A DNA stretch of 64,000 bases. Origin: an uncultured delta proteobacterium. GTDB lineage: Bacteria; Desulfobacterota; Binatia; UBA9968. Position 1 is the first letter of the stretch, and each line of letters begins with the position of its first letter. The notes beneath the pieces were generated by a model that saw only the letters and a program-made list of their open reading frames with translations, was not told where the DNA came from and searched no databases. Positions 49,019-64,000 of this stretch are shown here, piece by piece. Where the stretch lies: the NCBI GenBank assembly GCA_963771465.1, contig CAVYTU010000015.1:224001-288000 (forward strand), given 5' to 3'. The position numbers and the translations under genes are program-made.

Positions 49019-49080
49019 AATTGATAATGGAGAATTGAAAATGGAGAATGATTTTCCATTATCCATTATCCATTTTTCAA
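49019..49080. repeat. Inverted arrays of heptamer repeats
   Basis: AATTGAT AATGGAG AATTGAA AATGGAG facing TTCCATT ATCCATT ATCCATT TTTCAA. Confidence 0.7.
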
Positions 49081-50291
49081 GCCACCATTTTCTGCAACGT
49101 CCGTCCCAACGACACCAGACTGTTGACGTTATGGATCGACAAAAACATATCGAGATACGGCAGCGCCGCCTGCATGCCTTTGCACAGTGGCTCGTAGTTC
49201 TCGCTCGCCAGCAAGGGATTGAGCCAGATGATTTTTTTGGCGCGCCGTTTGATATCCTGCATTTCTTTTTCGAGCAAGCTCACGTCGCCGCGGTCCCAAC
49301 CGTCGCTGATGATGACGACGACGCTGCGATGCGTCACCATGCTCGGCGCGAAGTTGCGGTTGAAGGTATGCAGCGAGCGGCCGATGTTGGTGCCGCCGGA
49401 CCAGCCGAGGATGCTGCCGGAAATTTTATCCAACGCGTCGACGATATTTTTCGTGCGGATCAAGTGGGTGATCCGGCTGAGCGACGTGCTGAAGACGAAA
49501 GTCTCGACGCCCCAGAGCTCGTTTTGCAGCCCATACATGAACTGGATCAAAAACCGGCTGTAACAATCCATCGAACCGCTGACGTCGCACAGCAAAACCA
49601 CTTTGGTTTTCTTGATGCGCCGTTTACGATGCGATAACTCGATCACTTCGCCGCCGTATTTCATGCTGCGCCGCAAGGTCGAGCGCGGATCAATGACGCT
49701 GCCTTTGCGGCCGATTTTTTTGCGCCGGCTGATTTGCGTCGCGATTTTGGTCGCGATCAATAGGATCGCCCGCGCGATGGCGCGGCTTTCCTCCACGCTC
49801 ATCTCGCTGAAATCCTTGCGGTTCATCAGCTCCTGCGGGCTGTACGTCGGCACGGCGAATTCATCGAGATTTTCCAACGGTAAGTTTTCATTGGCTATGG
49901 CCTCGGCCGTGGCTTCTTCCAAACCGCCTTCCTCATCGCCGCCCTCGGGGGTCTGGGACTCGGTCGGCGTGCCTTGGATATCCATGGTCTCCATCGGCAT
50001 GCGCTCGTAGCTCTGCTCACACCAGAAGCGATCGAAGAGCATATCGAAAACGGGAAAATCTTCTTTCTGCAAAATGAGATTCGCCCTGAGCAGCGCGCGA
50101 AAATCGCCGCGCTCGGCGAGATCGACTAAATCCACCGCGCGCGACGTATCGAGCACCTGGCTGAGACTGACTTTGACGCCGAGCTGCTTTAGCGCGCGGC
50201 CAAACGCCATCATGTTTGGCAGGGTGCCCTTGCCGCGCACCGAGGCGACGCTATTGACCGCGGCGGCAACCGATTCCGCAGTGATATCCAT
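49077..50291 (-). CDS. CoxE-like VWA domain protein
   Basis: LLCDVSGSM (MIDAS), FVFSTSL, WSGGTNIG, ISDGWDRG and WLNPLL motifs. Confidence 0.93.
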   Translation of the reverse strand: MDITAESVAAAVNSVASVRGKGTLPNMMAFGRALKQLGVKVSLSQVLDTSRAVDLVDLAERGDFRALLRANLILQKEDFPVFDMLFDRFWCEQSYERMPMETMDIQGTPTESQTPEGGDEEGGLEEATAEAIANENLPLENLDEFAVPTYSPQELMNRKDFSEMSVEESRAIARAILLIATKIATQISRRKKIGRKGSVIDPRSTLRRSMKYGGEVIELSHRKRRIKKTKVVLLCDVSGSMDCYSRFLIQFMYGLQNELWGVETFVFSTSLSRITHLIRTKNIVDALDKISGSILGWSGGTNIGRSLHTFNRNFAPSMVTHRSVVVIISDGWDRGDVSLLEKEMQDIKRRAKKIIWLNPLLASENYEPLCKGMQAALPYLDMFLSIHNVNSLVSLGRTLQKMVA

Positions 50292-50297
50292 TGAAGC

Positions 50298-51218
50298 TTA
50301 ACTCACCATCTCGGGCGAAGCGCGCAGCAACGCATCGATGCTGAACTGGCGGTTTTCCACCTGCTCGCGCAGATGGTGCAGGTCCTCGCGATATTTGAAT
50401 ACACAGCCCATGGTTTCGACCACCGAACGATCATCCAACTGTTTGCGGTTGAGAGCGATCAGAGCCGACGCCCAGTCAAGAGTCTCGGCGACACCTGGCC
50501 GTTTGTAGAAATTCATCTCGCGCACTTTTTGCATGAAAGCGCAGATCTGCTGCGCCATCTTGCTTTCCACTTCGGGAAATTTGGTCGTGATGATCTCATA
50601 TTCCTTGTCGAAGGTCGGATATTCGATCCAATGATACAGACAGCGGCGCTTGAGCGCGTCGTGAATTTCCCGGGTCCGGTTGGAAGTCAAAAACACGTAG
50701 GGACGATGCTTCGCCGCGATCGTGCCGAGCTCGGGAATGGTGATTTGAAAGTCGGACAGCACTTCGAGCAAAAACGCTTCGAACTCCATATCGGCGCGGT
50801 CGATTTCGTCGATCAGCAGCACCGGCGGATTGGCGTCCTCGCTTTGGATCGCATCGAGCAAGGGCCTTTTGACTAGGTAATCCTGGGTAAAAATTTCGGT
50901 CTCGACTTGCTTCTTGTCGCCATGCTCGATCTCTTCGAGCTTGATATGAAGCATCTGCTTGGGGTAGTTCCATTCGTAGAGCGCCGTGTTGGCGTCGAGT
51001 CCTTCGTAACATTGCAAGCGAATCAGCCTGGAGCCCAGCACTTTGGACAGCACTTTGGCGATCTCGGTTTTGCCGACACCCGCCTCGCCCTCGAGCAGGA
51101 GCGGCTTGCCCATCACCAGGGAAAGATAAACCACCGTCGCCAAGGCGCGGTCGCAGACATATTTTTCCTTTAGCAGTATTTCTTGAACTAGCTCGATGGT
51201 CAGTTGTTGTGGATTCAC
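50298..51218 (-). CDS. CoxD-like MoxR AAA+ ATPase
   Basis: LEGEAGVGKTE, RLQCYEGLD, LLIDEIDRAD, TSNRTREIHDALKRRC and PGVAETLDWA motifs. Confidence 0.94.
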   Translation of the reverse strand: MNPQQLTIELVQEILLKEKYVCDRALATVVYLSLVMGKPLLLEGEAGVGKTEIAKVLSKVLGSRLIRLQCYEGLDANTALYEWNYPKQMLHIKLEEIEHGDKKQVETEIFTQDYLVKRPLLDAIQSEDANPPVLLIDEIDRADMEFEAFLLEVLSDFQITIPELGTIAAKHRPYVFLTSNRTREIHDALKRRCLYHWIEYPTFDKEYEIITTKFPEVESKMAQQICAFMQKVREMNFYKRPGVAETLDWASALIALNRKQLDDRSVVETMGCVFKYREDLHHLREQVENRQFSIDALLRASPEMVS

Positions 51219-51509
51219 GCTCGCCTCACTGGTTAATTGACTCGCTCGCTGGTCCCCTGGCAGGATTTTTCAGCCTCTGAATGAGGGAAAATCGCCTCGA
51301 CAACCCCTCCGCCAATGGTCCTAACCTTGCCCGAAATCGTGTCACAATACTCCGTTTCAAACCCCGGATCAACGCGCTAACCTTCACGCCGGCGCCGATC
51401 CTAATACCGCTGAGATGCGCCGTTCTCCTCGCCATCTCGCCGCCGTCCGTGGGATTCGCTATCATCGTCTGCCCTACTCAATAACATCATAACAAAGCAG
51501 ATCGAGTTA

Positions 51510-51543
51510 ACAAAACGGCCGCGCGCGAAGAAACGCGGGCCGA
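51510..51543 (-). terminator. Possible intrinsic terminator after the secretin gene
   Basis: Minus strand CGGCCCGCG-TTTCTT-CGCGCGCGGCCG-TTTTGT, an imperfect GC hairpin plus T tract. Confidence 0.4.
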
Positions 51544-51617
51544 GCCAGGTGAAGTCTACAGCGGAATCTGAACGAGGTTTTTGAAAATGCCGGAACTAAC
51601 GCGGGATCATTGGGCGA

Positions 51618-53396
51618 CTAGTTAAGCGCGACGTAAGCCCGTTGAAATTGCCGGTTGGCGGCTAAAGCTTTTTGCAATTCGCTGGCGTCACGGTGATTTT
51701 CGAACCGGCCAATCCGGACTCGATGCCAGATCTTTCCCTCTCCTTGAAAGGTCATTACATAAGCTTGGTAACCAGTTCTGCGCAGCTGGTCGGCGACCGA
51801 CTCCGCCAACTTGTTTTCCGCCAAGGCCGCCACTTGCACCGCCCAAATTCGATTCTGTTTTGGTTGCGTTGGCGGCGGCTTGGGTTGATTGGCAACTCTG
51901 CGAATCGGTCCGACGGGCACCGGCGCGAAGGACAGGGCGTAGAGTGGCTGCGCCGGCGATTGCCCTTCGCTAGGAGGTTCGGGATTTTGATCACGCCCGA
52001 GTTGACCATAGCTACGATTTTCGCCAACTCTGAGACTCTGGGTTTCCAGCCGTTGGCGCAGCAAGTCACCGTTTATTTCGCCCGCTACCAGACCGTAATT
52101 GGTAAATGCGTTCACGTACCCCGGTGCCGGCGCCAGCGACGCACCACGGTCAGGGACCACGGCGCTAGGCGCAGGCTGCGGTGGTATTGGCGGCACCAAG
52201 TCGGGATTAGGCATTGGCGGCGGCTCGACCGCAGATCGTTTGGGCTGCGATTTGGCGCGCTCGCGGGCCTCGCGCTCGAGCTCGTTGCGCAGGTTGGCCA
52301 GGCTATTTTTGAATTCTTCCGACACGTTCCGCGCTTCGTCGCGGCCGCGAATCACTCGCGGACTAATCATCATGATCAATTCGGTGCGTTCGCTGGTGTC
52401 GGTGGTCGTGCGAAAGAATCGACCGATCACCGGAATATCCATGAGATAGGGAACTCCCGAACGCGTCTGGTTCTTACCGTCGGTAATGATACCGCCGATA
52501 ACCAGCGTATCACCGTCTTGCACCACCGCGGTGGTTTCGGCTATACGACTATCGAAGGCGGGGAACGTATCCTGCCCCACTTCGACATTTTTCTCACGTC
52601 TTTGACTCACTTCGGCGAGGATCTGTAGATTGACCAATCCCTGAGAATTAACCTGCGGAATGATCGTCACGATTCGACCGGTATTGCGATATTGGATGCT
52701 GGTGCTGTTAGCGACCCCGCCAACGGCCTGTGAAATCGTGCCGGTGGCAATCGGCTCCTCAGTGCCTACTTGAATGCGCGCGGGCCGGTTGTCCGTGGCT
52801 AAGATCGACGGCGTCGACAGCACCCGGAAGCGCGCATCCGACTGCAAGGCATTGATGAATGCTCTGATGTCCTTGCCGCCAAAAATGCCGCTGACACCGC
52901 CGCCGAACGTATTGTTGGTTGGAAATAGCTCGCCGAGCGTTCGGATGGCGCCGGCTGAGCCAAATTTTTGACCAAAGATGCTACTGGGAAAATTTTTCGC
53001 TATCTCGTAATCGACGCCGAGCGACTGATTATCCGAAAGCGTCACCTCGGCCACCATCACATCGAGCAGCACCTGACGCGGAATGGCGTCGAGGTCTTTG
53101 AGAATATTTTTTATGTTCTGGAATTCCTGTGCCGTCCCGTAGACGATCAACGAATTGGTCGCCGGGTCGGCGACGATGCGCAATTGCTCTTGCTGCTGCG
53201 CCGGTTGCGTTTGACCTGCTGGCCGGGCCACGCCCGGAGCCTGCGGCTGCGCCGGCTGCGGCGCGACGATCGCCGGCGGCTGGACTTGACCGGGCACGGG
53301 CACGGTGGCGAAAGCGCCGCTGGGATTTTGAATTTGCGCTTCAGCTAAAGCCGCGCCACCGAACCAAATAACCATCACTGCGGTGCAAATTTTCAT
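51618..53396 (-). CDS. gspD: Type II secretion secretin, C-terminal part (own signal peptide, second half of N3, secretin domain, Pro-rich linker, SPOR domain)
   Basis: MKICTAVMVIWFGGAALAEA-Q; LRIVADPATNSLIV; PRQVLLDVMVAEV; VLSTPSI; LVIGGII...GVPYLMDIPVIGRFF...TELIMMISPRVI; C-terminal WAVQVAAL...WHRVRIGRF. Confidence 0.92.
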   Translation of the reverse strand: MKICTAVMVIWFGGAALAEAQIQNPSGAFATVPVPGQVQPPAIVAPQPAQPQAPGVARPAGQTQPAQQQEQLRIVADPATNSLIVYGTAQEFQNIKNILKDLDAIPRQVLLDVMVAEVTLSDNQSLGVDYEIAKNFPSSIFGQKFGSAGAIRTLGELFPTNNTFGGGVSGIFGGKDIRAFINALQSDARFRVLSTPSILATDNRPARIQVGTEEPIATGTISQAVGGVANSTSIQYRNTGRIVTIIPQVNSQGLVNLQILAEVSQRREKNVEVGQDTFPAFDSRIAETTAVVQDGDTLVIGGIITDGKNQTRSGVPYLMDIPVIGRFFRTTTDTSERTELIMMISPRVIRGRDEARNVSEEFKNSLANLRNELEREARERAKSQPKRSAVEPPPMPNPDLVPPIPPQPAPSAVVPDRGASLAPAPGYVNAFTNYGLVAGEINGDLLRQRLETQSLRVGENRSYGQLGRDQNPEPPSEGQSPAQPLYALSFAPVPVGPIRRVANQPKPPPTQPKQNRIWAVQVAALAENKLAESVADQLRRTGYQAYVMTFQGEGKIWHRVRIGRFENHRDASELQKALAANRQFQRAYVALN

Positions 53397-54748
53397 CGTA
53401 TCTGCCCCTGACCCTGATTGTATCCCGGACCGAACTGACCGCTTGTGCCGGATTGTCCTGAGCCGCCAAATTGGCCTGGGTTGCCAAATTGGCCGCCCCC
53501 AGTCCCAGCCGATGAGCGGTGTAAGTTCTGCAATGTTTGGTAGTTACTTCTTCCACCGCTCGAAGCCTGACCCAGCGCCTGATTGAGCACGTCGGCTAGA
53601 TCGGTCGCTTTGCCATTCTCCACGGGATAAATAAATATTCGCCGTCCCGGTCCCTGGGCGATCACATCGATGCGATCGAGCCAACGTTTAGTATACGTCC
53701 AAGCGGCTTCACTATGGCTGATCACCAAGAGCTGATTGATTCGCGGCAGCGGGATGAATTGCGCGGTAAAGGTATCGGTCTGCGGCGTTGACGCGGCAAA
53801 TGATTGCATCACTTTGGTCATTTCCACCGCCAGTTCCTCGGCGCTGGCAATCTTAGGCTGGTAGATCTCCATGCGCGTGCCGGCGAACACTTGGACGTCG
53901 ATCAAATCGGCGATTTCGACCAGCCGCTGAATATTCGCCGGAATGTCCATGACCACGAGAAAGTTTCCGCGCGGGTTATCGATAATCTCGGCGCCCGGCT
54001 GAAGAAATGGGGTCAGCACTTTTTTCATCTCTGATACTGAGAAAAATCGCACCGGGATGATTTGCAGGGCAAAGCTGTCTTCGCGGTTTTGTCCCACCGG
54101 CCGGGCCAAGCCTTTGCCGTCCTTGATCGGCATAATGTGATAGAGGTTGCCGGTGCGCACCGCCACCGCGCCGTTCATACGTAACAGCTGATGAAATATC
54201 GGCAATAGATCTTCTGCGCGTAACGGTTCAGCGCTGTTGATCGTGACCGTGCCTTTGACCTCGGGATCAATAGTGTAAGTGAGTCGAAGCTGCTGCGCGA
54301 TGATATGGATGATTTCAACCAAATCCGCGCGATTAAAATTGAGCGAAACCATCCCGCCTGAAGGAATCGACGGTGGCTGGGACAAACGTCGCGGCGGCAA
54401 GGGCGGCTGGGGTGCCGTTGGCGGCGCAGCTCTCTCTGCCGCGCCGGGTAGCGGTTGCAGTAGCTGAGGAGGATCAGGTTGCGGCGCCGCAACTGGCGTC
54501 GGTGTCTGGGCTTGCGTCGTACCTGGCTGCGACCCTAGAAACCCTGGAGGTTGCGTCGGAGCGGGAATACGCCGCGGAATGACCGGGGTGCGCCCGACCG
54601 GGGGAGTTGTTGAATCACTCGGCGGCGCGGGCTGAGATGCACTTGGATTAGATTGCGCTGGCGCCGGGGATTGCTGCGCCGTCAACGGAGTGATCGACGT
54701 CAATACGTAAGCCGCGGCAGCACAGCTCATTAGCCATTTTTCCGACAT
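53393..54748 (-). CDS. gspD: Type II secretion secretin, N-terminal part (signal peptide, Pro-rich region, N0-N1-N2, first half of N3, G/Q repeats)
   Basis: VSLNFNRADL, DPEVKGTVTI, IIPVRF, PRINQLLVI and IFIYPVENGKATDLADVLNQ, then a GQFG repeat tail and stop. Confidence 0.9.
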   Translation of the reverse strand: MSEKWLMSCAAAAYVLTSITPLTAQQSPAPAQSNPSASQPAPPSDSTTPPVGRTPVIPRRIPAPTQPPGFLGSQPGTTQAQTPTPVAAPQPDPPQLLQPLPGAAERAAPPTAPQPPLPPRRLSQPPSIPSGGMVSLNFNRADLVEIIHIIAQQLRLTYTIDPEVKGTVTINSAEPLRAEDLLPIFHQLLRMNGAVAVRTGNLYHIMPIKDGKGLARPVGQNREDSFALQIIPVRFFSVSEMKKVLTPFLQPGAEIIDNPRGNFLVVMDIPANIQRLVEIADLIDVQVFAGTRMEIYQPKIASAEELAVEMTKVMQSFAASTPQTDTFTAQFIPLPRINQLLVISHSEAAWTYTKRWLDRIDVIAQGPGRRIFIYPVENGKATDLADVLNQALGQASSGGRSNYQTLQNLHRSSAGTGGGQFGNPGQFGGSGQSGTSGQFGPGYNQGQGQIR

Positions 54749-54764
54749 CTATGCATCCTCCACC

Positions 54765-55418
54765 TCATGAATCAGAACTAGGGCTTCCCGGCACCGGAAT
54801 TCGACCGCGTCGCGGCAGATTGGGGAGAACCCGGGGGACCGGTGCCACAGTCGGCGGCGCCGGTACTTGACCGGGAATGGCTGCTGGCCCCGGTGGTAAT
54901 TGACCAGGAGCGGCAACCCGCGGCGGCGCCGTTTCAACTTTGCGAAAATAATCCAACAAGACCTCGACCCGCGCCGCATCCTTGGAGAACACCACGCGCC
55001 TGTCGGCGATCTCCGCCAATCTAAACCCTTCTAAATTGTCGCCAACTTTGAGCCGCATCACTGAAGCGGGCTGGCTGGGAAGGCGCGGCGTGCCGCTGGA
55101 CACCGGTCCATCTTGCAAAATGGCAACGCGATCGTTGCCGACGATAACTGTGCCCACTAAAATCATGCCGCGCACCCGTTGAAACGCGCGCGAGCTTTCT
55201 TCCGCCTCGCGCGTCGCGCTGGCGCCCCGTTCGGGATCGAATAGGTTTTTACTGACGATCATATCCGTATTCACCGGCGGTTTAGCTGCCGTGGCTGGCG
55301 ATTTTTCGGTGCTGCCAGCGAGATCGCGCCGCTTCGATCCAGTGGGTAGGTCCCAGGGGCCTTCATGCCACGAGCGATAAGCGCTCCATGCGAGCAAGCC
55401 GATGGCAACAACAAACAA
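54765..55418 (-). CDS. GspC-like type II secretion accessory protein (no PDZ, Pro-rich tail)
   Basis: N-terminal TM; NLFDPER, LVGTVIVG...AIL and LKVGDNLEGFRLAEI..RRVV; position before gspD. Start approximate. Confidence 0.7.
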   Translation of the reverse strand: MFVVAIGLLAWSAYRSWHEGPWDLPTGSKRRDLAGSTEKSPATAAKPPVNTDMIVSKNLFDPERGASATREAEESSRAFQRVRGMILVGTVIVGNDRVAILQDGPVSSGTPRLPSQPASVMRLKVGDNLEGFRLAEIADRRVVFSKDAARVEVLLDYFRKVETAPPRVAAPGQLPPGPAAIPGQVPAPPTVAPVPRVLPNLPRRGRIPVPGSPSSDS

Positions 55419-55618
55419 GACACTTACGAGTGATGATCGCCCGAGAATAAAACTTCTCCGTCAACCCATTCCAACTGCACTCAATAAAACAGGCTCAACT
55501 TACTATCTCGATGATGGACCGTCAAATTAGTGCGGAAATCATACAGTTTCGCTTCAAGTTTAGAAATAATATTTGTGAACGGCGAGCATAACAGCATTAA
55601 CGTCAGCCCCCTCGCAGT

Positions 55619-56287
55619 CTAGACCGGCTTCTCGTCGGCCGCCTTTGCCGGCTTGCCGGAATTGCTGCTCGGCGCAGCCACCGCTGGCTGCACCCGCGCA
55701 AAACCGGTTACGGTTAGGCTGATCCGTAAGTTCTGAGTGTTGACCTGAGGCACGCCTTGGGGCTGGGGAAAACCCAGCGGCCGAAATAATGAACGGACGT
55801 TGACCTCATCGATGACCAACAGTTTCGGTGCGGTCTCGATGCCGCGTATCAGATTAGCCACCTGCTGGATCTGGCCGCCGATCTCGAGCTGAATGCCAAT
55901 TTTAGAAAACGAGCCGGCCGGTTCGGGATTGAGCACACGCGTGGTAATCACCTGCGTCCCCTCCCGCGTTGCCAGCGCCTGAACCGTCTCTTGTAAATCG
56001 GAGGCGCTCACCGACGGCGTATCGCCGGTGAGCAAGCGCGGCTCCTGCGCCTTGATCTGACCACGCGCCGCTTCCAACGACCCCAACAACGCTTCTTTTT
56101 GGCCGAGGTAGCGGAGGTTTTTCTGCAACAATTGGGGTTGGCTCTCGAGCTGACTCTTGACCCATTCGCGGCGCTCGAGGAACGGCGTCACTGCGGCGTA
56201 CTTGCCGACGAACACGACAACAATCAGCAAGGTCAAGACAACTAAGCCGCGCTCGCGCTTGGACAGTCTCTGCCAGAACTTGCTCAT
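55619..56287 (-). CDS. gspM: Type II secretion protein M (GspM/PilO-like)
   Basis: WQRLSKRER, TM, coiled region and ferredoxin-like domain; follows gspL. Confidence 0.82.
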   Translation of the reverse strand: MSKFWQRLSKRERGLVVLTLLIVVVFVGKYAAVTPFLERREWVKSQLESQPQLLQKNLRYLGQKEALLGSLEAARGQIKAQEPRLLTGDTPSVSASDLQETVQALATREGTQVITTRVLNPEPAGSFSKIGIQLEIGGQIQQVANLIRGIETAPKLLVIDEVNVRSLFRPLGFPQPQGVPQVNTQNLRISLTVTGFARVQPAVAAPSSNSGKPAKAADEKPV

Positions 56288-57870
56288 GATTTGCTCTTGG
56301 TATCCTTCGCCGGTTCTTTGATCGGTTCCTTAGACGGTGCGCGGGCTGGTTCCTTGACCGCTTCTTTGACCGGCTCTTTGGTTTTTTCCAGCTCAGCCTT
56401 AAGCGAGAAGGTCTCGCGATTATCCCGGCCACGATTCGACGGCGCGTTAAATCCGACATTTTCAAATAAACTCGAACGCTCCAGGACTGGAATCAGCGCT
56501 GATGCGTTCTCGGCATTGCCTTGCACTTCGAGCACACCGGCGCGGTAGCGCAGGTTGGAAAAATAGGCGTTGCTCGGCACCACTTTGGACAATTCATCGA
56601 GGATACGCAGGACCTCGCCGCGACGCTGCTCGAAGCCGGTCAGAAAACCGGCTTCCTTACGCAACTGCTGCATTTGGTTCTCTTCTCTGCGCAGCGCTTC
56701 GATCGACGGTTCGAGTTTCTGGTTTTCCCGTTGCAGCTGGCGTAAGCGCAGCTCGTCCTTTACCGGAAAACTGACGCCCCAAGCAACCAGGCACAGCACG
56801 AACAGCCCGCACAGCACGCTATTGAGCATGGAGAGCGTCCGGTTGGCGCCATTAACACCGCCTTCGGGCCGTAAAAAGTTTGCCGCTAACGATGCTTCGC
56901 GGACGCCGCGCAGCGCCGCGCCGATGGCCGGCAAAGCCTCAACTTGATTAATTTGTCGGCCCGTTTTGAGCCGCGTCGCACCGCCGGCGACCAAATCCTC
57001 GGCCTGTGCCAACCGAGCATCAACTGCGCCATTCAAAGCCGTCAGTTCACCGCAACGAAAAACCTTCGGCACTTGACTTAAACATTCCTGCAACAACTCT
57101 TTGCCGCTGCCCTGGGCCCAGCCGTAGGCGGAGAATTGATGGGAGAAGAGCAGCTGGGGTGCGGGCTTCCAGCCGTTGGCTTTGGCACTGACGGCGATCA
57201 ATTCCCAATTCGAACGATGCGCGGCGACCAGTGCCGCGCTCTCGCCGCCGGCACCATTGGCAAAAAGCAAATAATTGGCCAGCGCCGACACCGTGGTCTC
57301 GACACCGCTTGGCTTAATTCCAAACGACTCGAGCAATGTCAGCAATCCGTCGAGAGCTTTCTTCGGCGTCGCAAATACATAAACGCAAAACTTCTCGCCT
57401 TTTTTACCGACGGGGAGAAAGTCGTAATAAATCTCGTCGCGTTTAAATGGCAACTGCCGTTCGATCTCGTATTCGAGCACCTGCTTGAGATTCTCTGCTG
57501 CCGCCAGCGGTAAAAATACCTGCTGCACGATGGTCTGCTCTTGCGGCACACAAACATAGACCGCATCCCGCGCCGGGTTAAAATGGGGTAAGAGCGAAAC
57601 CATCGCTTGGCGCAGCGCTCGGTCGCGCGAATCGTGTTCGGCCTTGAGTGCAATCTCTTTGACATCCTCGGCGACCCAACCGGTGAGCTCGGATATCGCT
57701 TGGCGATGATCGCCTTCAGGCAGTTCGCGATCTTCCAACTCGAGCATGGATAAACTGAGAAAGCTTTTTCGCAGCCGCACCATGACGACACGGTCGGTCA
57801 AAAAATAAAGCCCGACGCTGCGCAAGAAGTCGGCGCGGGTAAGATCTTGCAGTCGGTTGAGAGCGTTCAT
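56284..57870 (-). CDS. gspL: Type II secretion protein L (PilM-like N-domain plus PilN domain)
   Basis: LPLAAAENLKQVLEYEIERQLPF, one TM, and LDELSKVVP...VQGNAENASALI..LERS..FENV. Confidence 0.82.
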   Translation of the reverse strand: MNALNRLQDLTRADFLRSVGLYFLTDRVVMVRLRKSFLSLSMLELEDRELPEGDHRQAISELTGWVAEDVKEIALKAEHDSRDRALRQAMVSLLPHFNPARDAVYVCVPQEQTIVQQVFLPLAAAENLKQVLEYEIERQLPFKRDEIYYDFLPVGKKGEKFCVYVFATPKKALDGLLTLLESFGIKPSGVETTVSALANYLLFANGAGGESAALVAAHRSNWELIAVSAKANGWKPAPQLLFSHQFSAYGWAQGSGKELLQECLSQVPKVFRCGELTALNGAVDARLAQAEDLVAGGATRLKTGRQINQVEALPAIGAALRGVREASLAANFLRPEGGVNGANRTLSMLNSVLCGLFVLCLVAWGVSFPVKDELRLRQLQRENQKLEPSIEALRREENQMQQLRKEAGFLTGFEQRRGEVLRILDELSKVVPSNAYFSNLRYRAGVLEVQGNAENASALIPVLERSSLFENVGFNAPSNRGRDNRETFSLKAELEKTKEPVKEAVKEPARAPSKEPIKEPAKDTKSKS

Positions 57871-57932
57871 TCTATTTCAGAAGTAGCTGGCGCGGCACAT
57901 CGCCAGAACTTGGCGCCATTGTAGCTTATGAT

Positions 57933-58952
57933 CTAGCTTTTCGGTAGCGTAAAGTCACGATCGAGCCATCGTAGGAGTTCATAGCCCTGAGCGCCGCCGA
58001 GCCGGACGACGCCTTTAATCCGGCGCGGCATGCGCGCGTCCGCCAATTTTCCCTCGGATTCGACCGCCACGACCGTCGGATTGGTAAAAATAAACAGCTG
58101 CAGGGCCGGATCGCCGGAACCGATACCAAGCAGCGGTAGCAAATCAGCCAGAGTTTTTTCCGACGACTTTTTCCGCTCTTCGATAAAACTCCGGCATTTT
58201 TCCAGCGGGATTCCCATCACCGCATGGATCACCTCCGCCGACGCCGTGCGCAGATTGACCCGGTCGATGGGACTGTCAACGGTAAAAATATCTTTGAGCG
58301 CGATGCGCGGCGTGTTTTGCTCAGTTGATTGGCTCGCCGGCGCATAGCCAAAAAACAACTCCGAGGTCATCCCCCTGATCCAAAGCAAATCTTCGACGCT
58401 GTCGAGCGGACCGTTCTTCGCGCTGTACGACGGTGACTGGATTGAATAGTACTCGTTCTCGGCGCCGTTGATGCGGTGTAAATCGTCCGGGTCGCGCCAA
58501 TCCATGATCGAATCGACGAGCATATCTCGGCGCTGATCGTCCAGGCCGAGATTAGTCAATATCCGCCTGAGCGCCTCTTCGTTCACTCGGTTGATATTGA
58601 TTTTGCCGCCCTCGTCGACCAAACGGACGCGAAAGACACCGGCGCCAAAGTTTTCCTCGCGCCAACCGCCGTCGAAGAGATCGCGCTTATTCGGGTCGGG
58701 GAGTTGCGGCGTGCCACCGGGTTGCTGCTGGAGAAAATCGTAAAGGCCGCGCTGGAAGCCGGCTAGTGCCAGGTAATACCCCTGAGTCTCATCGCTAAAC
58801 CGCTGCGCCGCGGTCGCTTCCTCGCGCACCGAGGTGCTAAAATCGAAGGCGACCACGAAGAGAAAAATAAATATCCATAGAACCACGATCAGCGCCACGC
58901 CGCGCTGGTCGCCAAGTCTGCCCCGCGGATTGAAAATTGCCGCGGCGTTCAT
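57933..58952 (-). CDS. gspK: Minor pseudopilin K
   Basis: QRG-VALIVVLW, DEGGKININ, DSIMDWRDPD, GAENEYY and KNGPLDSVEDL motifs. Confidence 0.93.
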   Translation of the reverse strand: MNAAAIFNPRGRLGDQRGVALIVVLWIFIFLFVVAFDFSTSVREEATAAQRFSDETQGYYLALAGFQRGLYDFLQQQPGGTPQLPDPNKRDLFDGGWREENFGAGVFRVRLVDEGGKININRVNEEALRRILTNLGLDDQRRDMLVDSIMDWRDPDDLHRINGAENEYYSIQSPSYSAKNGPLDSVEDLLWIRGMTSELFFGYAPASQSTEQNTPRIALKDIFTVDSPIDRVNLRTASAEVIHAVMGIPLEKCRSFIEERKKSSEKTLADLLPLLGIGSGDPALQLFIFTNPTVVAVESEGKLADARMPRRIKGVVRLGGAQGYELLRWLDRDFTLPKS

Positions 58953-59749
58953 TGTGCCAGTACGCTCATCATCACGGGAAACGTCCAGCGCACCTCTTTG
59001 CCGCTATCGTTCAGATAGCTCAAGCGCACGGCGCGCGGCAAGATGCGCTTCTCTCTGCCATCCCATCGTTCTTGCCAATTCTCTTCTTCCGCCTGCGGGT
59101 CCAAGTAGGCTAAGCGGAACTCGCGAACGTTTTCCTGCATGACAACACTGTGACTCTGGCCCGACGAGTCGGCGTCAGAGTTTAGCCGCACCGGTGCGCT
59201 TTCCTCAAGCTTGAGCGCCGCCCGCCCGTCAGTCGCTTCGTCGACGACAATGCTGATTCGCGCCATGCCACGCCCACCCATCGCTTGCGAATAGGCCGAG
59301 ATAAACGTCAAGCTATCGATCTCGCCGTCAAAAAAAACGCTCTGATCTTGCGGCGAATCACGATATGGGAAGGTCGAACGAATGTAACTGCTGAGGAGAT
59401 CAGCGATGACGCGCTGTTTTTGATTGCGCGTGGAATTGGCATCCGATTTTGCCACCGCCGTATGGCTCAGCGAAAAGGCTCCGTAGAGAATCGCTCCCAT
59501 GAGCGCGAAGATCGATAGCGCCAGCACAACTTCGATGAGTGTAAAACCACCGGCTGCGGTCATCGATCGCGCGCCGCACCGGCGCCGATTATGCGGACCG
59601 CTAATCGCTGCGAAACCTAACCGAAGCCACTTCGCGGGCGGGGTATTGATCCCACCCTCGACCCAAGGGCATGCTCGTCCGCTTTGGAATCCCCATTTAA
59701 ATGGCTCCATGTTGCCAACAGCGTGGTCAACCAAATATTTAGGGCTCAC
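58949..59749 (-). CDS. gspJ: Minor pseudopilin J; alternative start at 59563
   Basis: G-FTLIEVVLAL prepilin motif; W...W...LPRAV C-terminus. Confidence 0.88.
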   Translation of the reverse strand: MSPKYLVDHAVGNMEPFKWGFQSGRACPWVEGGINTPPAKWLRLGFAAISGPHNRRRCGARSMTAAGGFTLIEVVLALSIFALMGAILYGAFSLSHTAVAKSDANSTRNQKQRVIADLLSSYIRSTFPYRDSPQDQSVFFDGEIDSLTFISAYSQAMGGRGMARISIVVDEATDGRAALKLEESAPVRLNSDADSSGQSHSVVMQENVREFRLAYLDPQAEEENWQERWDGREKRILPRAVRLSYLNDSGKEVRWTFPVMMSVLAQ

Positions 59750-60159
59750 GGATTGCCCTTCTTACTGAGTCGAAGAGTTTTTATCTCGATGCGGCGCTCG
59801 CGCCCGTCATCGTTAACGGTCATATCGAGAGCGACTTCCTTGATTTCCCAGGGACTCGACAAATTAAGCGACGGCGTATTGTCGCGCAGCGCATGCACCT
59901 GCGCGCTCCAACGCCCACCCGCGCCGACCGTGCCGGACTGCGCGCCGTCGGTGAGCTTCTTACGCGCCAGTAGCTCGTCCATCACGCGCGCGCCCGAGGT
60001 CAGCGTCTCGGTGCGCGCCGTACTGCGCGCGCCAAGCTGTAATCCTTGAGAAAAAATTTGTAACAGAGTCACCACTCCGAGTCCCAGGATAGTCATCGCG
60101 ACCAGAACTTCGAGCAGTGTGAAGCCGCTAGCAAAACGGCGTTGAGACAAATTATTCAC
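59746..60159 (-). CDS. gspI: Minor pseudopilin I
   Basis: G-FTLLEVLVAM motif; gene order G-H-I-J-K. Confidence 0.88.
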   Translation of the reverse strand: MNNLSQRRFASGFTLLEVLVAMTILGLGVVTLLQIFSQGLQLGARSTARTETLTSGARVMDELLARKKLTDGAQSGTVGAGGRWSAQVHALRDNTPSLNLSSPWEIKEVALDMTVNDDGRERRIEIKTLRLSKKGNP

Positions 60160-60161
60160 GA

Positions 60162-60623
60162 CTAATCGCCGCGGGAAACTTCGATCTTGCCGGTAAGCGC
60201 GTCGAGACGTATCTGATAGGATATCGCTTTCTCGCTGTCGGCGAGAACGATGGCGCCGCCCACCGTGCTGCCGTTGGGGAAAAAGTAAAAACGCTTGCTA
60301 TCGCGGTCGATGGCTTCGCCGCCGTCCACCGAAATGAATTTAACTTCGCTCGGCAAGTGCACCTCCCGAGTGCGCGCCACCAGGTAGCTATTCTGCGGCA
60401 GGTTGACCACGAGTTGTTGCGGCACGCCGTCGAATAGCGCTTGGCTGCGTAAATCGCGCGCCACGGCTGCTAAGCTCAGCGCCGAGATCCGCACTTCGCG
60501 ATCTTGGAGTCCCTTCGCGATGTTGGGAGCGACGATGGCCATGCTGACGCCGATCAGCAACAGCACGACGACCAGTTCGACGAGAGAAAAGCCGCGATTA
60601 TCTTTCCCAACTGGTAATGTCAC
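60162..60623 (-). CDS. gspH: Minor pseudopilin H
   Basis: G-FSLVELVVVL and FFPNGSTVGG...LTGKI motifs. Confidence 0.88.
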   Translation of the reverse strand: MTLPVGKDNRGFSLVELVVVLLLIGVSMAIVAPNIAKGLQDREVRISALSLAAVARDLRSQALFDGVPQQLVVNLPQNSYLVARTREVHLPSEVKFISVDGGEAIDRDSKRFYFFPNGSTVGGAIVLADSEKAISYQIRLDALTGKIEVSRGD

Positions 60624-61035
60624 GATTGACGTCTTGACCTCCAGGAGCACCATCGGCGCCGTAGGAAATAATGTCATACGGTCCGTGATCACCGGGGTTC
60701 TTATAAACATAGGGCTTTTCCCATGGGTCGGGCGGAACATCTTTTTTTAGATAAGGCCCATCCCATCGATCGACGCCGCCTGGCTTTTGGGTCAGCGCCT
60801 GAAGACCTTCCTGTGTGGTCGGATAGCGGCCAACGTCAAGGCGAAAGGTGTCCAGCGCCACGCCGAAACTCTCGATCTGGGCTTTGGCCGCTTTGGCCGT
60901 GGCTTTCTCGCCTTGCTTGATGTACTGCGGCAGCACCAGTCCGGCCAGTAAAACAATAATCGTCGCCACGATGATCAACTCGATCAGGGTGAAGCCACTT
61001 TCGCCATTGACGAGTTTTCGATTATGATAAGTCAT
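60598..61035 (-). CDS. gspG: Major pseudopilin G
   Basis: G-FTLIEL, ALDTFRLDVGRYPTTQEGL, WDGPYL, DPW and SYGADG motifs. Confidence 0.96.
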   Translation of the reverse strand: MTYHNRKLVNGESGFTLIELIIVATIIVLLAGLVLPQYIKQGEKATAKAAKAQIESFGVALDTFRLDVGRYPTTQEGLQALTQKPGGVDRWDGPYLKKDVPPDPWEKPYVYKNPGDHGPYDIISYGADGAPGGQDVNRDITSWER

Positions 61036-62239
61036 TGATACTAAATATCGCCAGCAGCATCGAGATAACAACCACGCCGATAATCAAACCCATCACTAGG
61101 ATCAACGCGGGCTCGAGCAGAGAAGTCAGTCTTTTCGTCGTTCGTCTTACTTCTTGGTCGTAGTAGCTCGCGACCTCGGCGAGCATGCCATCCAGTTTAC
61201 CGGTTTCCTCCCCCACCGCAATCATGTTGAGCGCCAACATCGGAAACAGACCGCTCTCGCTCAGCGGCCGCGCCATGCCCTTGCCTTCACGCACCCGCAG
61301 TTGAACTTGGCCGATGGCGAGCGCCAACAAACGGTTACCGACAACGCCTTGAACTGTCCCCAGCGCTTCGAGCAGCGGCACGCCGCCTTTCAACAAGGCA
61401 GCCAGGGTGCGGCAAAAGCGCGCGGTTTCGAACTTCCGCACCAAATCGCCAAGCAGCCAGCTGTGCAAACGCAACCGGTCCCACTCGCTCCTGCCCTCCG
61501 GGCTTCGGATATAAAAAACTCCGCCCGCAACGAGCGCGAACATGACCAACAAAACAATCCAGCCGTACTCTGCCAAAAACTGGCTAAAATCTATGACGAT
61601 CTTGGTGATCAACGGAATCGCCTTAGTATTACCGCGAAAAATCGTGGCAAACTTTGGAATGACGAAGATAAACAAAATCATCAACGAAAGGCCGGCGGCA
61701 GCGGCCAAAATGACCGGATAGATCAGCGCAGATTTGATGTCGTCTTTGAGCGCCAAGGTGTTTTCCATGTACTCCGTTAGATAGCGCAGCACGCTTTCCA
61801 AGATACCGCCGGCCTCGCCGGCCCGGATCATGTTAACGTAGATTTTCGGGAAAACGTCGGGATGCTCTCCCATCGAGATGGCGAGCGACTTGCCGGCGCG
61901 CACCGCTTCGACGAGAGCATTGAGTATTTTGCTAAGCTCGCTGCCCTCGAACAGACCGCCGAGGATAGACAAACTGCGGTCGAGTGGCAGGCCGGCGGTA
62001 AGCAGCGTACCGAGCTCACGGGTAAACTGCAGCAACTGTTGTTGGCTAACCCTACGCTTGGAAAAAATCGCCTGCTGGGGCGACGTGCGGATCGCCCGAT
62101 CGCTCGGCACCGCGATGCGCAACGGCACGCAGCCCATTTCGCGCAACCGCAGGACTACGCCTTGCTCGGCGTCGGCCTCCATCACTCCCTCGACAACCTT
62201 GCCGGCGTGATCCGCGGCGCGATACTGAAAAAATGCCAT
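61022..62239 (-). CDS. gspF: Type II secretion inner-membrane platform protein F
   Basis: AGLPLDRSL, MIRAGEAGG, ALIYP, GEETGKL and LLEPALI motifs. Confidence 0.96.
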   Translation of the reverse strand: MAFFQYRAADHAGKVVEGVMEADAEQGVVLRLREMGCVPLRIAVPSDRAIRTSPQQAIFSKRRVSQQQLLQFTRELGTLLTAGLPLDRSLSILGGLFEGSELSKILNALVEAVRAGKSLAISMGEHPDVFPKIYVNMIRAGEAGGILESVLRYLTEYMENTLALKDDIKSALIYPVILAAAAGLSLMILFIFVIPKFATIFRGNTKAIPLITKIVIDFSQFLAEYGWIVLLVMFALVAGGVFYIRSPEGRSEWDRLRLHSWLLGDLVRKFETARFCRTLAALLKGGVPLLEALGTVQGVVGNRLLALAIGQVQLRVREGKGMARPLSESGLFPMLALNMIAVGEETGKLDGMLAEVASYYDQEVRRTTKRLTSLLEPALILVMGLIIGVVVISMLLAIFSINDLS

Positions 62240-62344
62240 GATAAATTAGCGTGGGTTCAAAGTTCGATGGTTCATAGGTCCCAGGTAAAACGTCGGAACA
62301 ATGTCTCCATTGAATTTTTGCAGTCTTGAACCTTCGAACTAGTT

Positions 62345-64000
62345 CTACGCTTCTTCCCGCGTCACACGCAGCACTTCGGCCAACGTCGTCACACCTTTGG
62401 CGACTTTATCCCAGCCGTCGTCTCTGAGGAGCCGCATGCCTTGCTGGACGGCCAGGTTGCGAATGACACCGGCGTCGGCGCGCTGGACGATGACTTTGCA
62501 AAGGTCGGAGGTCACCGGGAGCAGCTCGAAAATACCGACACGGCCGAGATAACCCGTACCGCTGCAGGCTTCGCAACCCGCCGCCTCGAAGACCGCCCGT
62601 GGGACGCTACCATTAGTAAACTCTGGCGGCATACCGGCCATGCTGGTAACCGGCATTTGTCTGCGGCAGCTGGGACAGAGCCGGCGCACGAGCCTTTGCG
62701 CCAGCACACCGAGCAGCGATGACGAAAGCAAATAATCTTGCACACCCATCTCCAACAGCCTGGAGATCGCGCCCGCCGCGTCGTTGGTATGCAAAGTCGA
62801 AAAAACCAAATGGCCGGTCAGCGCCGCTTGGACGGCGATCTCGGCGGTCTCGGCGTCGCGAATTTCACCGACCATAATGATATCGGGATCTTGGCGCACG
62901 ATCGATCGCAGACCGTTGGCGAAGGTCAAACCGATCTGCGGTTTGACATGGATCTGGTTGATGCCGCTCAGTTGATACTCGACGGGATCCTCGATGGTAA
63001 TAATTTTTTTGCCCGGATCGTTGATTTTTTGCAGCGCGCCATAAAGCGTCGTCGTTTTGCCGCTGCCGGTCGGGCCGGTGACCAATACCATGCCATGGGG
63101 CTTTAAAATCATCTCGTCAAAGCGCGATTGCAGCTCGAGCGGAAAACCAAGGGCGTCGAGCTGGGTAAAAATCTGGCCGCGCTCGAGCAAGCGGATCACC
63201 ACGCTTTCACCGTAGAGCGTCGGCACCGTTGCGATACGCAGGTCGACGTCTTTTCCGGCAAGCCGGGTTTTGATTCGGCCGTCCTGCGGCAAACGCCGCT
63301 CGGCGATGTTGAGCTGGGCGAGAATTTTTAAGCGCGAGATCACCGCGGCTTTCAACTGCCGCGGCGGCGACTCGGTTTCGTGGAGAATGCCGTCGATGCG
63401 GTAGCGCACCTTGAGCTGATTCTCGAAGGGCTCGATGTGGACATCCGAGGCGCGACTCTCGAGCGCGCGTACGAGCATCTGGTTGACCAGGCGAATGACC
63501 GGCACTTCAGAGGCCATGTCGCGCAGATGGGCGACGTCTTCATCGTCGCCCATGCCTTCCAATGGCTCGGCGATCGCCTCCTGACCGCTATCCGCCGCGT
63601 AGCTGCTGCTATACAGCGCTTCGATACGCGCCAGGATTTCCTTTTCCCGCGCTAACACCGGTCGCACGCGCAAACCGGTTGCCATCTCCAAGGCATGCAG
63701 CCGGGAAAGATCCATGGGATCCCCGGTGGCAACAATCAGTTCATGACCGTCGATTTTCACCGGCACCATGCGCGCCAGCTTAAGAAAATCACCAATGCCC
63801 GACGGCAGCTCGATCGGCAATGGAGTATTCGGCAAGTCGCGCAACGACAAGACGGGAATATCGAAGTGGTCGCGCAGCACCGGCAACAAATCGTCTTCCG
63901 AAAGCAAGCCCAATTCGACCACCAGCCGGCTAAGCGGCGCCTGTTGCTCTTGCTGAAGTTTCGTCACCCGCTCGAGCTCTTCAGCGGAGATGAGCTGGCG
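62345..64000 (-). CDS. gspE: Type II secretion ATPase E (start beyond window end)
   Basis: ASDVHIEP, AERRLPQDG, GPTGSGKTT, EDPVEY, RQDPDIIMVGEIRD, TLHTN and CxxC...CxxC motifs. Confidence 0.97.
   Translation of the reverse strand, partial: RQLISAEELERVTKLQQEQQAPLSRLVVELGLLSEDDLLPVLRDHFDIPVLSLRDLPNTPLPIELPSGIGDFLKLARMVPVKIDGHELIVATGDPMDLSRLHALEMATGLRVRPVLAREKEILARIEALYSSSYAADSGQEAIAEPLEGMGDDEDVAHLRDMASEVPVIRLVNQMLVRALESRASDVHIEPFENQLKVRYRIDGILHETESPPRQLKAAVISRLKILAQLNIAERRLPQDGRIKTRLAGKDVDLRIATVPTLYGESVVIRLLERGQIFTQLDALGFPLELQSRFDEMILKPHGMVLVTGPTGSGKTTTLYGALQKINDPGKKIITIEDPVEYQLSGINQIHVKPQIGLTFANGLRSIVRQDPDIIMVGEIRDAETAEIAVQAALTGHLVFSTLHTNDAAGAISRLLEMGVQDYLLSSSLLGVLAQRLVRRLCPSCRRQMPVTSMAGMPPEFTNGSVPRAVFEAAGCEACSGTGYLGRVGIFELLPVTSDLCKVIVQRADAGVIRNLAVQQGMRLLRDDGWDKVAKGVTTLAEVLRVTREEA

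Follow-up and report, generated by a model that had tools for sequence, protein, structure and literature searches.

Is a type II secretin gene that is read as two overlapping frames a broken gene, or can a secretin be supplied as two exported chains? The question is raised by a gspD locus in a stretch of 64,000 nucleotides (nt) from the genome of an uncultured bacterium (G000); we refer to the whole stretch as the window, and all coordinates are positions in it. Secretins are giant pores of ~15 subunits, the flexible N0-N2 part of which connects to the inner-membrane machine; how the pore assembles, how the periplasm is crossed and how docking occurs are still debated. At this locus the secretin is encoded by gene 1 (gspD-N, 451 residues, 53393..54748) and gene 2 (gspD-C, 592 residues, 51618..53396), both on the minus strand, as are all the features described below. 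The two-gene structure is inherited within the genus, the insert that parts the halves is absent from the fused genes of sister species and has the layout of a signal peptide, and both halves are under purifying selection. With considerable, if not complete, confidence we interpret the locus as a genuine and selected fission, in which an insert in the loop of the N3 domain would have given two coupled, exported chains, with N3 being restored by their pairing.

Two overlapping genes for the halves of one GspD

Comparison with TIGR02517, the GspD equivalog model of NCBIfam (600 positions, cut-off 351.35 bits), reveals that gene 1 covers positions 1-291 (180.5 bits) and gene 2 positions 288-600 (254.4 bits). 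Each score is below the cut-off and their rough sum, 434.9, is above it; the complementary coverage implies that the genes encode the two halves of one secretin. The features by which GspD is recognised are present, i.e. N0 followed by Secretin_N-type domains, a C-terminal Secretin pore domain and a gsp operon setting, except that no one polypeptide scores above the equivalog cut-off. With respect to single-chain GspD (5wq7, 5wq8/5wq9), the domain order (N0, N1, N2, N3, secretin) and the operon context are the same; the differences are the division into two polypeptides with an apparent second signal peptide, a long P/Q linker ahead of N0, and a C-terminal SPOR domain.

Gene 1 encodes, in order, a hydrophobic leader as signal peptide, a P/Q-rich linker, N0 (residues 136-205, 54134..54343; PF21305, E 2.4e-16), N1 (a Secretin_N domain, residues 229-286, 53891..54064; PF03958, E 6e-18), N2, the first half of N3, and an S/G/Q-rich tail. 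The first half of N3, which we term N3a, comprises strand 1 and helix 1 (residues 366-393, GPGRRIFIYPVENGKATDLADVLNQALG, 53570..53653) and was assigned by alignment to the start of N3 in Vibrio cholerae GspD; the tail that follows it in the translation (residues 394-451, 53396..53569) contains GQFG repeats and is the remnant of the N3 loop. Gene 2 encodes the second signal peptide, a P/Q linker, the second half of N3, the secretin barrel, a P-rich linker and SPOR. Its Pfam matches begin with the second half only of Secretin_N (residues 68-104, equivalent to profile positions 29-65 of 69), followed by the Secretin pore domain (residues 183-350, 52347..52850; PF00263, E 2.5e-45) and SPOR (residues 517-589, 51630..51848; PF05036, E 1.8e-12). 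The second half of N3 (N3b) comprises strands 2 and 3 and helix 2 (residues 71-105, QLRIVADPATNSLIVYGTAQEFQNIKNILKDLDAI, 53082..53186), corresponding to Secretin_N positions 29-65 and to 5wq7 residues 284-320.

Structure-based alignments locate the cut. Gene 1 residues 135-390 align to residues 4-261 of V. cholerae GspD (5wq9), up to ...RRIFIYPVENGKATDLADVLNQ, and gene 2 residues 68-363 align to residues 284-585 of Escherichia coli K-12 GspD (5wq7). Because gene 1 ends at residue 264 of 5wq7 and gene 2 starts at 284, the cut lies in the N3 loop between helix 1 and strand 2. The gap in 5wq7 is of ~20 residues, whereas the N3 loop has 75-111 residues in the fused relatives. At the DNA level the 3' end of gene 1 reads ...GGG CAG ATA CGA TGA; its stop codon and the start of gene 2 share the ATGA at 53393..53396, the ATG sitting within CGATGA, and the N terminus of gene 2 is MKICTAVMVIWFGGAALAEA-QIQNPSG. 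A sequence-only reading of this DNA had proposed two coupled genes with an ATGA overlap and these ends, with a break inside N3 and a Sec-type signal peptide at the start of gene 2; coordinates and sequence confirm the gene structure, the alignments to 5wq9 and 5wq7 put the break in the helix 1-strand 2 loop, and gene 2 does start with a segment that has a Sec signal peptide layout by simple rules.

The split is no assembly error. Soil-metagenome contigs of three other studies span the junction (53378-53404) with 0 gaps, and no indel is present in all 801 bases compared. A single contig of 1267 nt (X5) covers 53000-53800 with 6 substitutions and 0 gaps, a second (X7) covers 53122-53800 with 4 substitutions and 0 gaps, and a third (X8) is identical over 53333-53478; the comparison rests on contigs rather than on raw reads, which could hide rare variants.

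DNA near-identical to 53000-53800 occurs in soil, rhizosphere, sediment and urban metagenomes (20 runs from 15 studies), and 14 metagenome runs contain at least half of the sampled words of this region; the source organism or its close kin seems to be widespread in soils. One database protein, P0002 (751 residues, on a 98-kb contig, 99% identical), looks fused, but it is garbled in several places and includes a translation of the gene 2 frame from ahead of the ATG, a pattern that an assembly with indel errors would be expected to give. In both P0002 and G020 an indel in the GQFG repeats runs gene 1 into the open upstream part of the gene 2 frame, giving a false fusion with an internal signal peptide. 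Multiple frameshifts in the secretin gene are present in P0002 and at loci L087 (G020), L026 (G003), L023 (G044) and L027 (G045), of which G003 and G020 are of the overlap form described below and G044 and G045 are fused; in these four genomes the additional frameshifts lie elsewhere in the gene.

Distribution and history of the split

The genus contains 31 genomes including G000, and reading the junction in three frames at each locus gave a readable result in 23 of them. Twelve of the 23 are split, with a stop codon and a signal-peptide-like insert, and 11 have a single gene without the hydrophobic segment. The split occurs in two forms. Nine of the 23 genomes (G000, G002, G003, G004, G009, G014, G020, G022 and G023) have an overlap form, in which an ...R-stop/ATG-A overlap is followed by sequence of the MKK-hydrophobic-AQAQNR type; the same CGATGA overlap is present in 8/8 of the overlap-form (type-A) loci examined. 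Three of the 23 (G011, G042 and G043) have a spacer form, in which an in-frame stop, being TGA, TAG or TAA, is followed by a spacer of 9-10 codons with GGAG and then by M(R/L)xH-hydrophobic-WAQ(K/N)R. The single open frame, continuous through ...SFGQQSQPLGAYAAVPAPGQ..., was found in 11/23 (G005, which is unpublished, G006, G012, G013, G015, G017, G018, G019, G041, G044 and G045), with lengths of 982-1059 residues in the nine clean genomes. Contigs end short of the junction in G021, G024 and G046, and the query used found no secretin orthologue in G001, G007, G008, G010 and G016 (completeness 60-99%).

Outside the genus clade, all 19 of 19 loci, from related metagenome-assembled genomes (MAGs), are fused; 10 of an initial 29 had been dropped as duplicates of genus genomes with identical junction sequences, and most of the 19 records are titled Candidatus Binatia or Deltaproteobacteria. 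Two loci from two genomes of another family (L019 and L020) are likewise fused. Since the outside loci are all fused, the fused gene is the older state. With respect to it, the split is an insert of ~25-30 codons, containing a stop, a start and a signal peptide, between ...QQ(S)Q and P(L/G)GA(Y/F)A. The N3 loops of fused genes (n = 15; 75-111 residues) have a maximal 10-residue Kyte-Doolittle value of 0.81-1.46 and contain no hydrophobic segment.

The insert at the start of gene 2 (residues 1-20, MKICTAVMVIWFGGAALAEA, 53337..53396) is missing from fused orthologues, and its layout, like that of the other inserts, was judged by simple rules only. In G000 the n-region charge is +1, the uncharged run has 16 residues, the maximal hydrophobicity is 2.48 and A-E-A lies ahead of Q. 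Over the 11 split loci examined, from which G020 was left out, the n-region has a net charge of +1 to +3 and is followed by an uncharged run of 11-19 residues; hydrophobicity peaks at 2.48-3.34, and in most overlap forms A/S-x-A precedes Q. Upstream of the gene 2 ATG, a purine-rich CAGGGG or AAGGGC is present at 9-14 nt in the overlap forms, and GGAG in the spacer forms. The residues of the insert change fast (dN 0.25-1.1 between genomes); this variability, together with the kept layout, fits a presumed signal peptide, i.e. a segment in which selection acts on the general character rather than on the individual residues. A lipoprotein signal on gene 2 was considered and rejected, no conserved lipobox before a Cys being seen by eye in the 11 gene 2 N termini. 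A putative second export signal is, by these simple rules, well supported.

The sequence-only reading had held this to be a real fission, unlike other frameshifts in the window, and the contigs free of indels, together with the same architecture in 11 other genomes of the genus, bear that out. It had also asked whether single-frame homologues carry the hydrophobic segment internally, and they do not, the loop maximum being 1.46 versus 2.48-3.34 in split forms. A further check that it proposed, whether related genomes have the same split with a conserved second signal peptide, shows 12/23 to be split with the layout kept and the sequence of the insert varying.

The N-half protein is common in metagenomes. 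A search of a large protein collection with gene 1 gave 422 matches at E <= 1e-10; among the best 120 of these 422, 116 have N0 plus Secretin_N and no Secretin domain. By a strict pattern, 93 of the best 120 finish in the S/G/Q loop (median 440 residues), and 78 of those 93 end in R, as is expected from CGA-TGA; a further 18 of the best 120 are similar as judged by eye from their C-terminal tails, and nine do not fit, namely P0002, fused forms truncated where a contig stops, and two that are otherwise unusual. Because full-length fused forms (>790 residues) could not appear in this search, the counts do not bear on how frequent split forms are relative to fused ones.

When the structured domains of both halves are combined in one tree, the result is three separate groups of split forms and not a single clade. 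Approximately unbiased (AU) tests, run after the tree was seen, rejected on it both a single origin of all split forms (p 1.2e-06, 11 split rows) and a single clade of the eight overlap-type rows (p 6.3e-05). The trees of the two halves are discordant. In the N-half tree the eight overlap forms make one clade (support 88) and the spacer forms another (96). In the C-half tree the overlap forms are in two clades, G000 plus G022 (support 99), adjoining the fused G015, and the other six (99), adjoining the fused G006 within a clade of 16 (99) that holds most fused forms; G000 and G022 therefore share a C half but not an N half. In a tree of RpoB, G000 pairs with G009, and G022 groups with G023, G004, G002 and G014, in agreement with the N half and in disagreement with the C half; MAG contamination of 1-9% and the use of a single marker bear on how these trees are read. 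The discordance points to recombination at or near the cut, with MAG chimerism as another possible source. Most simply, the trees are explained by a single origin of each split form and a subsequent exchange of the C half by recombination, with the cut being retained; it is the separate half-gene trees that favour recombination over repeated fission. A common origin of the overlap and spacer forms is suggested by the ...AQ(N/K)R...GA(F/Y)A that both have downstream of the hydrophobic run.

Selection, the fate of N3 and competing explanations

Both halves are under strong purifying selection. We compared 28 pairs among the eight split genomes in which both genes are complete, using the ratio of nonsynonymous to synonymous substitution rates (dN/dS) and leaving pairs without a computable dS outside the medians. 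The median dN/dS is 0.034 (maximum 0.057) for N0 to N3a of gene 1, and 0.070 (maximum 0.21) for N3b plus secretin of gene 2, with dS among split pairs ranging from 0.3 to beyond saturation. Mean identity in the split genomes is 0.90 for N3a, 0.83 for N3b, 0.70 for the pore domain, 0.57 for the tail and 0.51 for the linker, and N3a is nearly invariant across 23 aligned sequences. That both N3 fragments stay conserved in split genomes is the main, if indirect, reason to propose that N3 is still formed, and reassembly of the domain from two chains is likely on the basis of these sequences. A complex prediction for gene 1 residues 284-404 (N2 plus N3a) with gene 2 residues 62-112 (N3b), for which a separate alignment was used per chain, gave 0.29 and 0.28 (mark 0.32), and neither supports nor opposes binding.

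The mechanism that we propose starts in one soil genus without cultured members, where an insert of ~25-30 codons would have entered the long, disordered N3 loop of an ancestor, and with it a stop codon, a start codon for the second gene and a signal peptide of the Sec type. In fused relatives the fragments are joined only by the 75-111 low-complexity residues of that loop, and cutting it should cost little. The resulting adjacent genes are probably translationally coupled; coupling through a 4-nt overlap would favour similar amounts of both chains. Both products would be exported separately via Sec, the second signal peptide being cleaved. GspD-N (~425 residues when mature) would supply N0-N2 plus strand 1 and helix 1 of N3, and the pore would be formed by mature GspD-C (~572 residues), whose ~130-residue P-rich linker would allow the SPOR domain to reach the cell wall. 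In the periplasm the strand-helix of N3a may then pair with the strand-strand-helix of N3b such that the N3 fold is restored, and the N0-N2 vestibule would be held under the pore without a covalent link, still joining it to the inner-membrane platform.

Several observations weigh against this interpretation. The N3 fragments are less conserved in split genomes than in fused congeners (N3a 0.90 versus 0.97; N3b 0.83 versus 0.92). An AlphaFold2 model of the N0-N3 part of a fused orthologue (L003, 437 residues, 15-sequence alignment) has a mean predicted local distance difference test score (pLDDT) of 48.2 and a predicted template modelling score (pTM) of 0.30; in this low-confidence model the order strand-helix-[~95-residue coil]-strand-strand-helix is as expected and the packing is unreliable. 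A clean A-x-A is lacking in the insert of G022 (...FSGTPIHN) and in the three spacer forms (...VQWAQ). The extra frameshifts in the secretin gene of four genus genomes (G003, G020, G044 and G045) are either assembly errors or decay, and the sole contig from an RNA library (X15) covers 53514-53750, i.e. lies within gene 1, and such libraries can hold DNA.

That an assembly or sequencing frameshift confined to this genome accounts for the split has a next to negligible chance: other frameshifts were noticed in the window from its sequence and G000 is a 19-contig assembly, but the junction is free of indels in contigs of three independent studies, and the architecture is shared with 11 other genomes, several of them highly fragmented (240-1060 contigs). 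It is also extremely unlikely that one chain is still made, by programmed -1 frameshifting or stop-codon read-through at the junction. Gene 2 does lie in the -1 frame of gene 1, in G000 no stop interrupts that frame over the 49 codons that precede the ATG, and error-prone assemblies yield 'fused' calls (P0002, of 751 residues, and G020); against this, no slippery heptamer was seen by eye in the junction DNA, the gene 2 frame of G009 has stops 10 and 17 codons ahead of the ATG, the in-frame stop differs among all three spacer genomes and is in each case followed by GGAG and a new ATG, and P0002 is garbled at several other places. An internal hydrophobic segment in a fused product would, moreover, be expected to block export of the pore half. 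Very unlikely too, in our view, is that the split marks the beginning of pseudogenisation in a decaying secretion system, as might be proposed from the 5/31 genus genomes in which this query found no orthologue (completeness 60-99%) and from the four other genomes with extra frameshifts in the gene. The dN/dS values of 0.03-0.07 in both halves over deeply diverged split genomes, the intactness of all other gsp genes in the window, the gain and retention of a signal peptide in 12 genomes and the more than 100 distinct N-half protein clusters in metagenomes all speak against decay.

A more serious contender, although one that we still regard as improbable, is that the fission is real and N3 is not rebuilt, such that GspD-C alone is a pore with a vestigial half-domain and GspD-N is a free adaptor, for example one still binding GspC through N0, or is being lost. 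No computed result places the halves in contact, the identity of the N3 halves is, as noted, slightly lower among split genomes than among fused congeners, and conservation is poor in the tail and linker beside the cut (0.57 and 0.51). Yet N3a is 0.90 identical and nearly invariant in split genomes, above the pore domain, the dN/dS of gene 1 is 0.034 with saturated dS, and a half-domain of one strand and one helix would have no obvious way to fold alone. A selected fission with N3 restored by pairing remains the reading that we favour. A bolder extension of it is possible but doubtful, i.e. that the secretin is a two-component one in which the N3 ring forms by fragment complementation, the pore inserts first, the vestibule docks later, reversibly or in variable number, and the halves are separable modules, the C half having been swapped. 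The sequence-only reading had suggested a detachable or exchangeable vestibule, which is how such a secretin might hypothetically behave. Alternative vestibule modules were looked for in G000 and that candidate was rejected there, with only one gene-1-like gene being found by this query (E <= 0.001).

Operon setting and comparison with known systems

The type II operon to which the secretin pair belongs is otherwise complete; all of it is on one strand, with the pair at its end. Directly upstream is a gene of 217 residues (54765..55418) that is weakly GspC-like (NF041515 GspC_delta, E 5e-05, 23 bits versus a cut-off of 150) and for which no Pfam match was found. The rest of the operon (55619..63967) encodes, on the basis of Pfam, gspE, F, G, three N-methyl pseudopilins including J, K, an L-like PilM/PilN fusion, and M, the matches being T2SSE, T2SSF, T2SSG, N_methyl, T2SSJ, T2SSK, PilN/PilM/T2SSL and T2SSM_b; all frames are open and M is of subtype b. 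At the GspL position (56284-57870) is a protein of 528 residues with weak PilM and T2SSL N-terminal matches and a C-terminal PilN domain, which from these matches looks like a PilM-PilN-type fusion. Downstream of gene 2, beyond a 400-nt gap, an AAA ATPase (AAA_5/AAA, 306 residues) and a VWA CoxE-like protein (404 residues) are encoded at 49077-51218, and are probably a separate unit. A promoter and terminator scan of 51100-55700 found no promoter-like site on the minus strand between genes 1 and 2, and its terminator-like sites were not above chance (5 found versus 5.7 expected), one such hairpin lying ~80 nt past the gene 2 stop (51538-51519, minus strand).

Two low-complexity regions and the SPOR domain also merit comment. 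Between the first signal peptide and N0 of gene 1 is a P/Q/A-rich stretch of ~100 residues (residues ~25-130; 54360-54680), which is poorly conserved in relatives, whole-gene identity being lower than domain identity; it could be a long tether. In gene 2 a P-rich linker of ~130 residues precedes SPOR, at about 51849-52240. The SPOR match scores 47.8 bits with respect to a gathering score of 21, and FtsN and RlpA models match the same stretch of gene 2; this cell-wall binding domain is also C-terminal in the fused relatives, in which matches extend to query residue 590-592. Wall binding in secretin systems usually comes from N-terminal AMIN domains or partner proteins, in place of which the SPOR domain of gene 2 may act.

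The cut falls in the N-domain directly under the gate, and both pieces are kept under strong selection. The split suggests that vestibule and pore may not have to be covalently joined, and, if the pairing of the N3 fragments is true, the locus provides a natural example of two exported chains that together build one small domain. The uncut gene in sister species provides a ready-made allele pair for comparison. The locus also illustrates a route for the fission of genes for exported proteins, in which the downstream half must acquire its own signal peptide. There is a practical aspect, in that such loci could be mis-scored by system-detection tools built around a single secretin gene or by models with whole-protein cut-offs; automatic annotation of the N half here reads 'secretin N-terminal domain-containing protein'.

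Fission followed by retention of both products has a parallel in the same superfamily of machines. TadB/TadC of the inner-membrane platform of Tad pili are described (PMC6668835) as the products of a gene fission, both being kept as tandem genes. The likeness to the present case is the retention of both products. The TadB/TadC fission differs in that the two parts are whole domains, repeated within a cytoplasmic-membrane protein, in that no new signal peptide is needed, and in that it is ancient and fixed, whereas the GspD split is polymorphic among congeners.

Among secretins themselves, the precedent is in type III systems. A split secretin is described in rhizobial-type type III systems (PMC3574062), encoded by N- and C-terminal genes, RhcC1 (NolW) and RhcC2, and likewise HrcIIC1/C2 in Pseudomonas syringae, the authors stating that the functional significance of the Rhc split is not known. 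To compare the position of that cut with the one reported here, we consider pNGR234a, the NolW of which (234 residues) contains N0 and a complete Secretin_N (profile positions 1-63 of 69). Its sole gene with a Secretin domain (475 residues), which we take to be RhcC2/y4xJ, has T2SS-T3SS_pil_N, BON and Secretin domains and adjoins a CpaD-family gene; the two genes are ~12 kb apart on opposite strands. The Rhc split, in another secretion system, therefore falls at a boundary between whole domains, whether by a cut or perhaps by a replacement. Rhc secretins belong to a type III cluster and the secretin described here to a type II cluster; the Rhc cut lies between whole domains of genes that are apart, whereas here it lies inside N3 and the genes overlap by 4 nt. 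Unlike in Rhc, a new signal peptide has, as far as the sequences indicate, visibly been inserted here, and fused and split alleles coexist in one genus. In the literature searched, with most subscription journals outside its scope, no split type II secretin and no cut in N3 were found, only the Rhc type III case. A split secretin as such is thus already known from Rhc type III systems, and the type II version described here, cut within N3, appears to be new.

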